Shown here: one piece after another, positions 5,320 to 10,939 of the stretch
How the letters are laid out: each line of letters begins with the position of its first letter
Numbering within the stretch: the first letter of the stretch is position 1
Sequence record: PZ379074.1
DNA: 64,000 nucleotides
Source: a phage
Strand: one strand, 5' to 3'
Notes under the pieces: model-generated
Seen by the model: the letters and a program-made list of their open reading frames with translations, nothing else
Databases searched by the model: none
What the model was told of the DNA's origin: nothing
Made by a program: the position numbers and the translations under genes

Positions 5320-5350
5320 AAAAGGTGAGCTGAATGCTTGCCTTTTCTTT
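5320..5350 (+). terminator. rho-independent terminator-like hairpin (copy 1 of duplicated terminator-promoter cassette)
   Basis: AAAGGTGAGC-tgaat-GCTTGCCTTT stem (two G-U pairs) followed by TCTTTT; directly after stop of 4984..5313. Confidence 0.45.
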
Positions 5351-5398
5351 TATCAATACTTATACTCTTTTCATCAAGACTAACAAGTGAGGTGAATT

Positions 5399-5931: not shown

Positions 5932-6311
5932 GAATGAAGCGTTGCCCTTACTGCCACGATGTAATGCACCTTCCACACGAAGAGTTTGTGCAGCACATGA
6001 CTAACTGTGATAAGAATCCTAATAGCGAAAGCCAACTTGAAGAAAGAATGTTCTTGGTGTCATTCAAAGCTTCTGCTTATGAAGTGCAACATTCTTACGG
6101 CGCACCAAGTACGATTTACTGTCCAACAACATTGAGAAGCGACATCGACTCAATTCAGCTTGCGGCCTGGATTAACGTTAAGGAAGGAATCACGCCGCAC
6201 TTTATTGCGCGCATCCAATCTCAGATTCTACAAATCAAGCGCGAATACAACCGTGACATAACTGAAGTGAAGGTGCTGTCTATCACTCCTATGAATAAGG
6301 AGTTGCCGTGA
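5928..6311 (+). CDS. hypothetical protein with N-terminal Cys/His cluster (127 aa)
   Basis: ATGA overlap; CPYCHDVMH...HMTNC zinc-finger-like cluster. Confidence 0.5.
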   Translation: MRMKRCPYCHDVMHLPHEEFVQHMTNCDKNPNSESQLEERMFLVSFKASAYEVQHSYGAPSTIYCPTTLRSDIDSIQLAAWINVKEGITPHFIARIQSQILQIKREYNRDITEVKVLSITPMNKELP

Positions 6312-6568
6312 ACAAGGGTCCGATGACTAAGTTGGCCGTTGCCGCGCGGAAGCTTCGACAAGCCGTTAATGGGTCGCGGCCCGTGGTGTTAACACTCGAC
6401 GACGCAAAGGCACTGGTAGAGCTACTCGACGAGCACAACCGACGCAAGAATCTGGAGAACACATTACGCTGGCGCGTTACTCCGAAAGGGCGGGAGAGCG
6501 AAAAGAAAGCTTACTTGCGGCGTAAACTAAGGTCGGTCGGCCTTCACGAAGAGGCGAAGAATATTTAA
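6308..6568 (+). CDS. hypothetical basic protein (86 aa)
   Basis: GTG start overlapping upstream stop (alternative ATG at 6323); followed by terminator-like hairpin. Confidence 0.45.
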   Translation: MNKGPMTKLAVAARKLRQAVNGSRPVVLTLDDAKALVELLDEHNRRKNLENTLRWRVTPKGRESEKKAYLRRKLRSVGLHEEAKNI

Positions 6569-6572
6569 TTCA

Positions 6573-6602
6573 AAAAGGTGAGCTATATGCTTGCCTTTTT
6601 AT
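6573..6602 (+). terminator. rho-independent terminator-like hairpin (copy 2 of duplicated cassette)
   Basis: AAAGGTGAGC-tatat-GCTTGCCTTT then TTATTT; same stem as 5320-5350. Confidence 0.45.
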
Positions 6603-6646
6603 TTGCCTGTATTATACTTAGTTCATCAAGCAAAGGAGATTTGATT

Positions 6647-6943
6647 ATGAGTTACGACGAAAGGTTTGGCAGAAGTGGATTGTTCCACGACGCTGTACAC
6701 AAAGACAGCAAAGATGTTGTCTGCGCATTCAAGGTTGATTCTTACGGTACGCTGAAACCTTTTAAGGTCGGCGAAACATACAAGCTGTTTCACGGCTGGT
6801 TGACGCGTCGCAACAACTTGCCTGATATGGAAGTCTGGTGGATAGAATATAAGGGCCAGGCCCATCGCTGCAAGGTTGTAGAGGTGCGCGGCGTCAAATA
6901 CTATCAATCGATTATCAGCGGTTTTGTGTTTAAGGGGATTTAA
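6647..6943 (+). CDS. hypothetical protein (98 aa); FKVGxTY paralog family
   Basis: Start set at ATG 6647 with AAGGAG RBS; shares FKVGETYKLF motif with 8267..8608 product. Confidence 0.5.
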   Translation: MSYDERFGRSGLFHDAVHKDSKDVVCAFKVDSYGTLKPFKVGETYKLFHGWLTRRNNLPDMEVWWIEYKGQAHRCKVVEVRGVKYYQSIISGFVFKGI

Positions 6944-6945
6944 TT

Positions 6946-7251
6946 ATGAGTACCGAAGCGATGAAGAAAAAGATTTTGAACGCTTTGCAAGAAGCTGTGA
7001 ACTGTGGTGCCATTAAAACCTTTACTGAAAGGCAAGTCGGTGAGGTGACGGTGCACGGATTCAATAATAACAAAAACGGAATTGCTGCCATAATGCTGTT
7101 GAAGAACAGCGATGACACATTCATCCTTTACGTCGGCGGATATGAGCTTATCGTTGATGATTTGTTCATCACTTGCGCTGACGGCCTTAACCCAATGTTA
7201 ACGTTCGAGCGGCGCGGCATCCGTGTTGCAACGTTTGGAGGGAAGCTATGA
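6946..7251 (+). CDS. hypothetical protein (101 aa)
   Basis: N-terminal motif LQEAVNCGAIKTF resembles N-terminus of 7758..8267 product. Confidence 0.5.
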   Translation: MSTEAMKKKILNALQEAVNCGAIKTFTERQVGEVTVHGFNNNKNGIAAIMLLKNSDDTFILYVGGYELIVDDLFITCADGLNPMLTFERRGIRVATFGGKL

Positions 7252-7541
7252 GACTAAGTCTAGCGCAAATTCAAACATTGTACCGGATGGAAGACGGAAC
7301 GCCATACATGCTGCGCGGCGACCGCAAGAAGGCTTATGAAAAGCGGCCATCACTGTTTCACGACATCAATGCGCCATCAATCCCTGTCTTATTCCGGTTG
7401 GGCCTTGTTGATTGGGCGGTGCCAGGGGAGAAAGACCCGACGCGCTATTCATCCGTGGTGATGACAAAAGCAGGTCGCGCGGCATTAAAAGAGATTAAAG
7501 AAAATATGGCTGGAGGTAAATATTATGACATCCAATCTTAA
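7248..7541 (+). CDS. hypothetical protein (97 aa)
   Basis: ATGA overlap. Confidence 0.5.
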   Translation: MRLSLAQIQTLYRMEDGTPYMLRGDRKKAYEKRPSLFHDINAPSIPVLFRLGLVDWAVPGEKDPTRYSSVVMTKAGRAALKEIKENMAGGKYYDIQS

Positions 7542-7761
7542 AGCCCGTTTATTATTCATCAAGCCGCATGTGCCGTATAAGATTAGTAAGCGCACCTGGC
7601 TTAACATCTACAACCGCAGCGGCGACCGTTGTTTGTACAAGGCAAAGCGGCGCAAGAAGGTATATTTAAAGGCGGTGATGTCGCAACCCGTCGATGCATT
7701 CAACATCGGCGAAAATGAATTGTCAATCGGCTATCAAATTGAACTCGGAGCAAAGAAATGA
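7525..7761 (+). CDS. hypothetical basic protein (78 aa)
   Basis: ORF overlapping upstream gene by 17 nt. Confidence 0.4.
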   Translation: MTSNLKARLLFIKPHVPYKISKRTWLNIYNRSGDRCLYKAKRRKKVYLKAVMSQPVDAFNIGENELSIGYQIELGAKK

Positions 7762-8267
7762 AAATCGAACAACTCGAAGCAGTATTGGAAATGGCTGTAA
7801 AGGCAGGCGCAATCAAAAGCTATCGTCGCGAGAAGTCAGATAGCGATAAGGTGTTTTGTCGCAACTTCTATATCGTTGGCAACCTTAATGACCACTACAC
7901 CATAGAGTGGTATATCAATATCATGACCCTTAAGTCGCGCACCATGGAGCTTTGGTGTGATGACATTTGTCTTTCTCATAGTCATCCGTGCTATGACGTT
8001 GCGCTTGGATTCTTTTATAAAAGCAACCAACCAATCGCACACATCGGTGAGAGGCATGAGCACTTGAAGGAGAAGCCAATGGCGAGTGACGGCTGGATTG
8101 ATTGGGATGGTGGAGACTTGAATCCAGTCCCAGGTAAGAAGGTGCTTTACGTGCTGCGCGACGGCGCTACAGCAACAAAGCCGATTGCATCAGATGAATT
8201 GCGCTGGGAGAAGATTGACGATGCTTATGCAGCCGACATCATCGCTTATCGGGTCGTGGAGGAATAA
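7758..8267 (+). CDS. hypothetical protein (169 aa) with shared C-terminal NPVPGK...IIAYRVV module
   Basis: ATGA overlap; C-terminal ~55 aa homologous to C-terminus of 9152..9571 product. Confidence 0.55.
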   Translation: MKIEQLEAVLEMAVKAGAIKSYRREKSDSDKVFCRNFYIVGNLNDHYTIEWYINIMTLKSRTMELWCDDICLSHSHPCYDVALGFFYKSNQPIAHIGERHEHLKEKPMASDGWIDWDGGDLNPVPGKKVLYVLRDGATATKPIASDELRWEKIDDAYAADIIAYRVVEE

Positions 8268-8608
8268 TGGAAGAGCAAGAAGGCCGTGAGCTAACGTTCG
8301 ACGAGCAAATGCAAGAGCTTCAGCGCACATCGCCGCTGCGCGGTAAGGTTGTTGACATCGAAGCGAGCGAATCCAACCTCACCCAGTGGCGGCTTAAGTG
8401 CACCAGCACAAGCAAGGATATGTTAAGCTTCAAAGTCGGTCAGACTTATTTGCTTTATGAGGCAAAAGGACTTATTATTGATGGAAAGCAAATTGTCTTT
8501 ACTTTTGTCAACGGCATGAGATGGTTTGTGAAGCGTGATGTCGAGGGCCGTGACATGTTTGTCGCAGGCTTTCCAGAAACAAGATTCCAATTGGAGAAGG
8601 TTAAATGA
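8267..8608 (+). CDS. hypothetical protein (113 aa); FKVGxTY paralog family
   Basis: Shares FKVGQTYLLY motif with 6647..6943 product. Confidence 0.5.
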   Translation: MEEQEGRELTFDEQMQELQRTSPLRGKVVDIEASESNLTQWRLKCTSTSKDMLSFKVGQTYLLYEAKGLIIDGKQIVFTFVNGMRWFVKRDVEGRDMFVAGFPETRFQLEKVK

Positions 8609-8937
8609 AATTGAAATGGTACGTGGACCCTGAGCCGACAGGCCAATACAGGTCATTCCAACGTCGCGGCTGGCCGACTTGTTACAGCGGCAATCCCGAT
8701 AAAGAAGATTGCGAGCTTCTTGCCGCGATAGTAAGTCTTAACCATGACGGCTATGAAGGCCACTACGCGAGAGCAACCAACCTTCGGCTCAAGGTGCGCA
8801 TCCATTTCAAGGTCGCAGGCGAGGACCGCACCGGACTCTCCAAGGAAGAGTTCAGCAGCATCGCTGAAGCAAAGGCATGGCTAAAAGCATTCTACAAGGC
8901 AAATCCTAAATTTTATCCAACTAAGGATGCATCATGA
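8605..8937 (+). CDS. hypothetical protein (110 aa)
   Basis: ATGA overlap. Confidence 0.5.
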   Translation: MKLKWYVDPEPTGQYRSFQRRGWPTCYSGNPDKEDCELLAAIVSLNHDGYEGHYARATNLRLKVRIHFKVAGEDRTGLSKEEFSSIAEAKAWLKAFYKANPKFYPTKDAS

Positions 8938-9155
8938 CCGATAAACAATACGCAGTCGGGCAACGTGACATCGAACAACTCGACGAGGGCGGCTATTATA
9001 CGCGCCACATCTATGCCATGACTCATGAAGGACTTTACAGCAAGTCGGACATCGCCGCTGAATTGGCCCATCGTGACTTGCAGATTGACATGTTGCGTCT
9101 CGCGCTTGAGAAGCAAACGCAGATTGCCATTGAAATTTTGGAGAAGTTAGAATGA
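8934..9155 (+). CDS. hypothetical protein (73 aa)
   Basis: ATGA overlap. Confidence 0.45.
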   Translation: MTDKQYAVGQRDIEQLDEGGYYTRHIYAMTHEGLYSKSDIAAELAHRDLQIDMLRLALEKQTQIAIEILEKLE

Positions 9156-9571
9156 TACAACGTTACGATGTTGATTATTGCACGCAGCACGCTTGCACTT
9201 GCGAAGTTGTAAAGGATAATGAAGGCGGCTACGTTGAATATGAGGACTATGCCGCGCTGGAAGCGAAATATAATGAAGCGCAACGCGAGTTGGCTGCATT
9301 ACGCTCACAGGTCCGTGATGCATCGGCGCTCGTTAAGCAGTTGCACGACGTTGTTGCTACTATAGGCGTGGATGATGATGCGCCGAAGGAGGAAGCGTGG
9401 ACCGTGTGGTTTGGTGGCGCGAATCCGGTGCCTGGGAAGATGGTTGAGTTTGAATTACTCAACGGTTATAAATCAAAAGAAGCCGTGCCAGCAGACAACT
9501 TGAACTGGGGCGAGGTAACAAGTCCGACTGGGGCAAAGATTATTGCTTATCGGGTCGTTAAGGAGGGGTGA
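9152..9571 (+). CDS. hypothetical protein (139 aa) with shared C-terminal NPVPGK...IIAYRVV module
   Basis: ATGA overlap; C-terminal module repeated from 7758..8267 at protein and partly DNA level (gcttatcgggtcgt). Confidence 0.55.
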   Translation: MIQRYDVDYCTQHACTCEVVKDNEGGYVEYEDYAALEAKYNEAQRELAALRSQVRDASALVKQLHDVVATIGVDDDAPKEEAWTVWFGGANPVPGKMVEFELLNGYKSKEAVPADNLNWGEVTSPTGAKIIAYRVVKEG

Positions 9572-10104
9572 TGGGCGGCTTTTGGCGTAAAGCTAAATAC
9601 TCTAAAGACTTGCATTACTTCTTGGATAATGAAGGCATAAGTATATGTGGCAGGTACAGAAGGGATAATGAATCAGCGTCGCAAAGTAATAAGGCTGAAT
9701 GGTTACTCAAGGAAGAGTGCAAAGTTTGCCGCAAACGTTTTTGTGACAAAACCAGCATGACTGATTACATAAAGGAGCTTAGAAAAAGATGCAAAAGCCC
9801 GCAAGAGTTTGCCATAACTCTTTGGGATGATCACCCTGAGTTGAGAAGTGAATGGTTAAAGACTGATGCAATCAATTACATCTTCAAATCGAAATACAGG
9901 ACGACAGCAAGATATAAAATGGATGAAGCAGTAATTCAAAAGGTATTTTCTTATTGGAGGGATACAGTCGATATTGTGAAAATAAAGAAATACCAAAACG
10001 AAGTGCTGCTGGAATTGGAGAGGATTGGCTATAAAGTCACCAATAAAATGATAAAAGAAGAAATAAAAAGGAGAACGGAAAAGGGGTTGATGCCTAAGAT
10101 ATAG
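9568..10104 (+). CDS. hypothetical Lys-rich protein with Cys cluster (178 aa); AT-rich gene
   Basis: ATGA overlap; visibly lower GC than neighbours; C-x-n-CKVC-x-n-C cluster. Confidence 0.5.
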   Translation: MMGGFWRKAKYSKDLHYFLDNEGISICGRYRRDNESASQSNKAEWLLKEECKVCRKRFCDKTSMTDYIKELRKRCKSPQEFAITLWDDHPELRSEWLKTDAINYIFKSKYRTTARYKMDEAVIQKVFSYWRDTVDIVKIKKYQNEVLLELERIGYKVTNKMIKEEIKRRTEKGLMPKI

Positions 10105-10439
10105 TGAATAAACGAACACCGTTTACGTGTTTTGAAGAATGGAATGTGTACAATGGGTCGCTTTATGCGGCCTTTTGTTGTTTGGGTCGTGTTTTGCGAT
10201 GGAATAATTATGAGGTTGTGTTTTATTTATTAATTGTGCGGAAATATTTAGAAATATATTTCATAGGTCGTGTCTATTGGTCCGTGGTGTTTGTTAGGAC
10301 TTATCTATGGATTGAAATTTTAGTGTCGTGAAACGTGGTGTTTGAACACATTTGATACGCGTAAAATACGGCTAAAAATTAAGCGTATCATGGCTGCAGG
10401 CCGCGCCGTTACTGAGTTCCTATTTTCAAAAGTGGTACA

Positions 10440-10800
10440 CCCTTACGGATGATACGTCATGGTTTTTTATCCGTATCAGTGTACAGCCCTTGCCGCGCCT
10501 GGCCTGTACATTAATCTTACGGATGATACGGATAAAACTGGGCACCATTATATATATAATTTGAAAAATTAATTAACTCCATTTTAAAAACATTTAAATT
10601 ATTTTTTTCATATCCTCATACTTATGTTAATTTATATATTTAACGTATCATCCGTAAGATATAAGTAAAAACAAAGACTTGCGGCAATACGGATGATACG
10701 TTATGATACGCTTCGACCAGCCAGCAGCGGCTAAGTCATTGATTTGCATAACAAGCAGCGAAAGGGATGGATTTCTTTTATCCGTATCAAACAGTACACC
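10440..10800. repeat. iteron-like repeat cluster, 13-bp motif TACGGATGATACG / CGTATCATCCGTA, flanking an AT-rich tract
   Basis: Full copies at 10444-10456, 10518-10530, 10688-10700 (+) and 10644-10656 (rc), plus partial copies; AT-rich tract 10545-10640. Confidence 0.7.
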
Positions 10801-10939
10801 ACGCACCACGGTCCGTTATCCATTCAGCACTATGATTTGTGTACGTTTATAGCCATAATGAACATCAATCTGCACTTGAATATAATGTCCATCCATTGTA
10901 TAATTCACACTATTAATTTGCACTATGGGATTTTGCACT

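Follow-up and report, generated by a model that had tools for sequence, protein, structure and literature searches.

Do the small genes that lie side by side between positions 6,647 and 9,571 of sequence record PZ379074.1 owe their mutual resemblances to a shuffling of shared protein units, to inheritance in place, or to chance? The DNA under study (64 kb in full, referred to as the window) is that of a Wifcevirus-like Escherichia coli myovirus, and an earlier note made from its letters alone had described here an early region of shuffled paralogous modules, based on three pairs of similar proteins. All six open reading frames (ORFs) named there are present where they had been placed; we refer to genes by their first position, and all genes, gene segments and repeat arms given below are on the plus strand. 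Our own reading, to which we assign a probability of roughly 70 %, is that two independent protein units, a C-terminal module (M) and an alpha/beta domain (A), are reused in this accessory block and that each of them circulates separately among unrelated phages. The units are gained, lost, tandemly duplicated and recombined within the genus, with the conserved flanks of the module serving as crossover sites, and one natural genome has fused both copies of M, thereby losing the four units between them.

A module common to two proteins

Similarities were assessed by all-against-all BLASTP of the 15 small block proteins and, for 17 family profiles drawn from nine relatives, by hhalign of every profile with every other. 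The C-terminal parts of the proteins encoded at 7758..8267 and 9152..9571, which had previously been paired over about 55 amino acids (aa), are indeed homologous (39 % identity over 77 aa, E = 2.8e-12 by BLASTP). Module copy 1 (8088..8264; residues 111-169; GWIDWDGGDLNPVPGKK...LRW...DIIAYRVVEE) was delimited by BLASTP, profile search and AlphaFold2, and copy 2 (9389..9568; residues 80-139; EAWTVWFGGANPVPGKM...LNW...KIIAYRVVKEG) by BLASTP and profile search; both are full-length, contain the invariant residues of the family and score 90-94 bits against a genus profile and 66-67 bits against a deep profile. As had also been pointed out, the similarity extends to the DNA: the C-flanks of copy 1 (8238..8263) and copy 2 (9539..9564) are the two arms of a repeat of 26 nucleotides (nt) with 85 % identity, which includes the exact 14-mer GCTTATCGGGTCGT. 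Conserved flanks of this kind are a likely substrate for recombination between the copies. A six-frame search of the window found no copies of the module or the A domain beyond those reported here.

Module M comprises about 58 aa, with conserved flanks (W-x2-W-x-G-G-x-N/C-P-V and D-I-I-A-Y-R-V-V) that enclose a hypervariable centre of about 30 residues; W3, W6, N12, P13, V14, P15, W40 and Y54-R55-V56-V57 are invariant. Within Wifcevirus, it is present in both sets of positional orthologues (7758 and 9152). Three proteins of the block differ in their architecture, with 6946 probably consisting of A, 7758 of A followed by M, and 9152 of a hairpin, a predicted coiled coil and M.

A second, more distant pair

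The 169-aa product of 7758 begins with an A domain (7758..8075; residues 1-106), in which one helix is followed by a beta-meander and which corresponds to phrog_21861 (residues 1-104 cover this family end to end, 1-104/104, E = 4.4e-51). The product of 6946 (6946..7251; 101 aa) probably represents a stand-alone alpha/beta A domain and is most likely a distant paralogue of residues 1-106 of 7758 over almost its full length. The pairwise comparison is marginal (42 % identity over 26 aa, E = 0.11 by BLASTP in the 15-protein database), E-values between hidden Markov models and sequences range from 0.07 to 0.2, and 6946 has no PHROG match. By profile-profile comparison, hhalign assigned a probability of 36 % with shallow profiles and of 62 % once homologues from Phapecoctavirus had been added, the alignment then covering 84 columns (6946 9-100 versus 7758 5-99) with a score of 30.0. 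Column-shuffling of the 6946 alignment gave 11.4±2.4 with a maximum of 19.3, none of 200 shuffles reaching 30.0 (a gap of about 7.7 standard deviations); the reversed 6946 alignment scores 18.3, and every other early family stays at or below 13.5 against the same profile. The resemblance of the two N-termini that the earlier note had claimed is thus corroborated and reaches well beyond the N-terminal helix.

Stand-alone A homologues of 97-104 aa occur in Phapecoctavirus (phAPEC8, ESCO13, PsgM04F; 42-47 % identity by tblastn), and a further one in Dompiswa phage TSP7_1 was recognized by Foldseek (template modelling (TM) score 0.80, 44 % identity). The 6946 gene itself was detected by tblastn in 23 records, all from Wifcevirus-type phages of E. 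coli/Shigella, and hence only in Wifcevirus.

The third pair proposed, 6647 and 8267 with their common FKVG(E/Q)TY motif, did not hold. Seven of 12 residues are identical (E = 0.079 by BLASTP), hhalign gave a probability of 9 % over 10-14 columns, and the score of 21.2 compares with 11.5±2.6 for shuffled alignments, 1 of 200 of which also reaches 21.2. For a pair selected visually out of more than 100 that were possible, the match is at chance level.

Shuffling within the genus

Among the relatives, domains are demonstrably fused, duplicated in tandem, lost and homologously recombined at their conserved flanks. In an NCBI assembly (L028, a contig of 66 kb) as well as in an independent SRA run (L029), a 7758-type gene agrees with the window sequence as far as 8134, a position within the NPVPG flank, then continues as the 9152 module (9391-9447, 9539-9576) and finally runs into a 9568-type gene; the units 8267, 8605, 8934 and 9152N are missing. 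The fused gene (L028:4001-4513 and L029:792-1304) encodes a hybrid module, P0019, with the crossover placed in the module N-flank (NPVPG region), and is a deletion-fusion that arose when the two module copies, which are direct repeats, recombined with each other. A reading of P0019 as an exchange of cassettes between the loci was rejected in favour of this one. Tandem duplication is documented by seven proteins of the 9152 family with two M copies in succession (family lengths 130-231 aa) and loss by 7 of 53 orthologues of 7758 that lack the module, some being clean proteins of 108-110 aa (e. g., in AV128) and some frameshifted. Modular duplication and recombination, as postulated earlier, therefore hold for the two units M and A, with the deletion-fusion in L028/L029 as a direct demonstration of the mechanism, and not for the FKVG(E/Q)TY motif.

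The same picture of mosaicism emerges from an alignment of nine 7758 sequences (the window and eight relatives). Identities at the amino-acid and nucleotide level, respectively, are 87 and 88 % for the A domain, 70 and 76 % for linker plus N-flank, 44 and 58 % for the centre of the module and 87 and 84 % for the C-flank. At 62 % identity, 14 classes of central cassette can be distinguished, 12 of which are locus-specific, while one is common to both loci (15:15) and one is represented by P0019. On a larger scale, positions 6000-10200 match 29 phage records, all of them Wifcevirus-type phages of E. coli/Shigella (WFC, WFH, Ro157lw, Bas98-101 and others), at 87-93 % identity; since coverage is only partial (just 41-89 %) and split into several pieces, the region is mosaic within the genus. 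All its genes carry the label 'hypothetical protein' in the records of these relatives.

Module M beyond the genus

Outside Wifcevirus, tblastn revealed the module in E. coli phages of about 136 kb. A profile search of a word-indexed database returned 470 proteins, mostly stand-alone, 56-110 aa in length and none annotated by Pfam, which stem from phage and prophage contigs as well as from Herbaspirillum and Sphingomonas genomes. Exhaustive HMMER searching of 1.84 billion representatives (50 % clustering) yielded 3,700 module representatives at E≤1e-3 (292 at E≤1e-10) in proteins of up to 1,031 aa; what this search in other phages, recommended by the earlier note, retrieves is for the most part stand-alone phage or prophage proteins of ~60 aa. 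Up to five matched stretches per protein are given in the HMMER report, with at most four clear copies at a domain E≤1e-5, and among the 120 hits listed, 68 of 121 module matches have no more than ten residues on either side. Structure prediction, likewise recommended, resulted in a confident AlphaFold2 fold for the module alone (predicted local distance difference test, pLDDT, 91.9; predicted TM score 0.77). Judged from these predictions, M is an autonomous, beta-rich domain; it is acidic on average, with a mean net charge of about -3 to -4 and a median isoelectric point of about 5.

The domain spans at least six PHROGs (9174, 16943, 11995, 26870, 13874 and 27780), all labelled 'unknown function'. 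Via the module, both window proteins match PHROGs 9174, 16943 and 11995, and 7758 also 26870 (E from 1e-8 to 5e-4); the long multi-copy proteins match the same set. These PHROGs divide the domain over several whole-protein families instead of delimiting it as one domain, and they have neither a function nor a structure nor a Pfam model assigned to them. When all block proteins and module proteins were scanned with Pfam, NCBIfam and PADLOC, nothing exceeded the threshold, and PDB sequence searches with 7758, 9152 and the module profile likewise retrieved nothing. Comparison with the small beta-barrel folds SH3, Tudor, KOW and OB gave no significant structural match to a solved structure. The MucBP repeat protein P0357, a candidate member, was matched by the profile only partially and probably does not belong to the family. 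In all, M appears to be an undescribed and very widespread phage domain without an entry in Pfam, NCBIfam or PDB.

Stand-alone module genes sit in accessory regions of phages and prophages (nin-like, recombination and replication regions), where their neighbours encode NinX, NinB, YqaJ, ERF, a primase-helicase, a sliding clamp or an MT-A70 methylase, and in two cases (L019/L020) a module gene lies directly upstream of a DUF551 gene. As a separate observation, records of 135-150 kb named 'Campylobacter phage' (H60, H61, H67, H120, H182, H183) carry units of Vequintavirus, Phapecoctavirus and Justusliebigvirus at identical identity, and their 'Campylobacter' host labels look doubtful.

Interchangeable heads and the 9152 protein

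The 139-aa product of 9152 bears its module behind an N-terminal hairpin unit (9152..9262; residues ~1-37, MIQRYD...GGYVEYEDY) and a coiled-coil-like stalk (9236..9358; residues ~29-69, DYAALEAKYNEAQRELAALRSQV...), the latter being conserved across the 9152 family and giving weak Pfam matches to DivIC, MbeD and TPR; residues 29-69 are accordingly predicted to form a coiled coil. The hairpin unit occurs without the module in phi92 gp008, and an alternative N-terminal variant seen in the Wifcevirus 9152 family is found in gp067 of Kagunavirus Shashou. Altogether, two or three different hairpin sequences are in use at the N-termini of the family, and some members (P0055, P0064, P0082, P0127, P0166) have duplicated 'hairpin + DYAALEAKY' units and long linker insertions that bring them to 180-231 aa.

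One N-terminal helical unit of about 50 aa is attached to the module in P0191 and to a Cys-rich segment together with DUF551 in L024:5808-6275, the two versions of the unit being 47 % identical (E = 1e-11). As the same N-terminal unit can bear either of the two, the module behaves as one of several interchangeable C-terminal heads. DUF551 (PF04448), a small Trp-rich phage domain, is similar to the module in size and genomic niche and takes an analogous architectural position. Homology between the two, which motif likeness and adjacency had brought up, was rejected at this level of sensitivity after no Pfam match had been obtained at E≤1 and hhalign had given about 1 % with a weak, two-sequence DUF551 profile.

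Residues 3-51 of 9152 furthermore match the Lar-like restriction alleviation family phrog_3592 (E = 1.8e-4), and 9152 is, like Lar-like proteins, small, acidic and phage-encoded. The likeness is limited, however, in that the match takes in no more than the hairpin and the first part of the coiled coil. Membership in the Lar family was discarded, with no Pfam match to Lar_restr_allev and the zinc-ribbon Cys pairs being absent; the alternative N-terminal variant of the 9152 family is devoid of any Cys.

Possible function and alternative explanations

As to function, we tentatively consider M as the target-binding head of dispensable host-interaction proteins, a possibility rather than an expectation. 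There would be one head per protein, several in tandem, or a head borne by a coiled-coil stalk that oligomerises; its carriers may target a protein of the host or of a phage in the course of take-over or counter-defence, and the variable centre might tune specificity. Pointing in this direction are the autonomy of the module, its tandem arrays and coiled-coil display, the combination of a conserved framework with a variable centre, its acidity, the interchangeability of heads and the accessory location of the genes. That M should specifically be an acidic target-recognition head of counter-defence/host-takeover proteins is an idea to which we attach little weight.

Diversifying (positive) selection, which the earlier note had supposed for the early proteins, could also have made the module centre hypervariable by acting on a surface that interacts with the host. 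The centre is far more divergent than the flanks and the A domain (44 % versus 87 % amino-acid identity), 14 cassette classes exist in a single genus, and Wifcevirus phages withstand the majority of the defence systems tried, with no protective gene known (bioRxiv 10.1101/2024.09.12.612763). However, pairwise Nei-Gojobori estimates for the nine aligned sequences gave median ratios of non-synonymous to synonymous divergence (dN/dS) of 0.16-0.24 in all segments of 7758, none exceeding 1 and the centre (about 0.24) being similar to the flanks (0.16-0.22). Synonymous sites being as diverged as non-synonymous ones, an exchange of old, deeply diverged alleles is indicated rather than recent positive selection. 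In the centre, dS is saturated in 18 of 36 pairs, which prevents a firm exclusion of positive selection, and we regard this explanation as doubtful.

Less probable again is plain vertical paralogy, that is, an ancient tandem duplication in the ancestor of the genus and subsequent divergence in place with no ongoing shuffling. It would readily explain that both module genes keep the same positions in nine of nine relatives examined and that the flank signatures (WI[DE]W...VEE versus WTVW...KEG) are, like most cassette classes, specific to their locus. Yet each unit is distributed separately in unrelated phage groups, M has been doubled in tandem or lost within the genus, the identity profile is sharply mosaic (87/44/87 %), a deletion-fusion between the two copies exists, and the same stalk bears M or DUF551 in different phages.

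We give scant credence to a third possibility, according to which the module is a nucleic-acid-binding domain in replication/recombination, as might be conceived from the proximity of stand-alone module genes to YqaJ, ERF, NinB, NinX, primase-helicase, sliding-clamp and methyltransferase genes and from the invariant aromatic residues and invariant Arg of the module. Chance or low-complexity sequence as the source of all three similarities is hardly conceivable: pairwise BLAST gives borderline E-values of about 0.1 (15-protein database) for two of the three pairs and FKVG(E/Q)TY is at chance level, but the module pair with its family of 3,700 clusters and the 6946/7758N score refute this for two of the three pairs.

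Several points nevertheless weigh against our reading of two circulating units and against a binding role for M. With 12 of the 14 cassette classes being locus-specific, exchange between the two loci must be rare. The homology of the A domains rests on profile-profile statistics from shallow alignments with a probability of 62 %, and the best BFVD hits that Foldseek gave for the 7758 model, many of them unnamed, include no recognizable homologue of 6946. The coiled coil of 9152 and its oligomerisation are predictions from sequence rather than from a structural model. Conserved aromatic, Gly and Pro residues of the module may define its fold and need not form a binding site; Pfam, NCBIfam, PADLOC and PDB searches contributed no relatives that would support a function for M, and the long module proteins contain no informative partner domain (20 scanned against Pfam and 10 against PHROGs). 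Finally, the 'early' timing of the block is itself only deduced.

Transcription unit and neighbouring genes

Ten translationally coupled small genes extend from 6647 to 10104 and probably constitute one transcription unit of small accessory genes, as they are bracketed by a terminator/promoter cassette (6573-6618) and a terminator-like site (10155-10173). At the upstream boundary (6573..6618, plus strand), a terminator-like hairpin (AAAAGGTGAGC...GCTTGCCTTTT) with a T-run precedes a promoter-like TTGCCT-16-TATACT, and the WFC record has a terminator annotated at the orthologous position. A near-identical intergenic cassette with the same hairpin and T-run is situated at 5320-5366 (TTGCCT-16/17-TATACT in the two); together, they look like repeated terminator-plus-promoter units that split the small-gene region into transcription units. 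After gene 9568..10104, the unit is closed by an intrinsic-terminator-like hairpin with a T-run, a strong site (10155..10173, plus strand). The sigma70-like promoter cassette and the terminators are sequence features at the boundaries of the unit. Literature searches uncovered no expression timing of the block in Wifcevirus or Pbunavirus and nothing on these proteins, and published transcriptome work on the related Pbunavirus 14-1 left the timing question unsettled; the labels 'early' and 'host interaction' follow from gene size and organisation only. Beyond the unit, a stretch of about 0.8 kb (10105-10924), bounded by the terminator at 10155 and the following gene (10925), has no convincing ORF and a lower guanine-plus-cytosine content (0.42), and it includes the two best sigma70-like matches of the scan (10859-10904).

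Gene content varies among the relatives in that 6647, 6946, 7248 and 8605 are each present or absent among ten genomes, the gene order of the block being otherwise conserved. For example, 6647 is missing from two of nine relatives (Ro157lw and FEC19) and 6946 from RCIP0319. The first gene, 6647..6943, encodes 98 aa with no Pfam or PHROG match and no significant relation to 8267..8608; with a ribosome-binding site (RBS, AAGGAG) at 6633, the ATG at 6647 is the plausible start, and the upstream GTG at 6578 falls inside the terminator-like hairpin. The 113-aa ORF 8267..8608, unrelated to 6647, is highly conserved in the genus and lies inside the four-unit stretch that is deleted in L028/L029. The RBS/start regions of 6647 (6633-6657) and 6946 (6932-6956) have a 25-nt repeat with 84 % identity in common, which could be a recombination site at gene boundaries.

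The 73-aa unit of 8934 sits at differing positions inside longer ORFs (130-221 aa) of Bas101, Bas100, AV128 and 4M-7 (L003:6194-6685, L007:5553-6218, L008:6131-6523 and L006:4371-4805, respectively). It is a third shuffled unit, which was absent from the earlier note. The longer ORF of 4M-7 may be an artefact of start-codon choice. A probable frameshift has split the Bas100 orthologue of 7248 (L007:4250-4542) into two ORFs, of 70 aa and 47 aa, that overlap, and several orthologues of 7758 have frameshifted modules (P0029, P0047, P0048); these genes can decay.

Relation to known systems and biological meaning

The lambdoid nin and ea regions are mosaic accessory-gene regions of tailed phages and exemplify their modular evolution. 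Like the block described here, they are runs of small, dispensable, translationally coupled ORFs, and the likeness extends to presence or absence among close relatives, to units common to unrelated phages and to recombination at short conserved sequences; stand-alone module genes even adjoin NinX and NinB. In contrast to the lambdoid regions, however, a sub-genic domain with conserved flanks is exchanged here and not only whole genes, and the block belongs to a virulent Wifcevirus myovirus instead of a temperate phage. Since domain-level mosaicism in phage accessory regions is well known, the phenomenon is unsurprising, and the block is ordinary phage mosaicism, a well-documented instance of a known phenomenon in unusual detail.

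What the locus adds is, on the one hand, a clean natural case of the mechanism: a pair of paralogous domain copies, 1.3 kb from each other, serve as substrates for recombination, which in one relative has cost four genes and produced a hybrid domain. On the other hand, module M, as a large family with neither curated model nor structure, merits consideration as a new Pfam entry and as a subject of structural and functional studies. For Wifcevirus itself, members of which are now in the BASEL collection, 7758 and 9152 stand out as two dispensable, fast-varying proteins and thus as candidates in a genus that withstands most defence systems tested. A counter-defence role is worth considering on account of this resistance, the link of the two proteins to it being a conjecture. 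If M is indeed a recognition head, the 7758 and 9152 cassettes would contribute to the broad, as yet unexplained resistance that Wifcevirus shows to restriction-modification and other defences.

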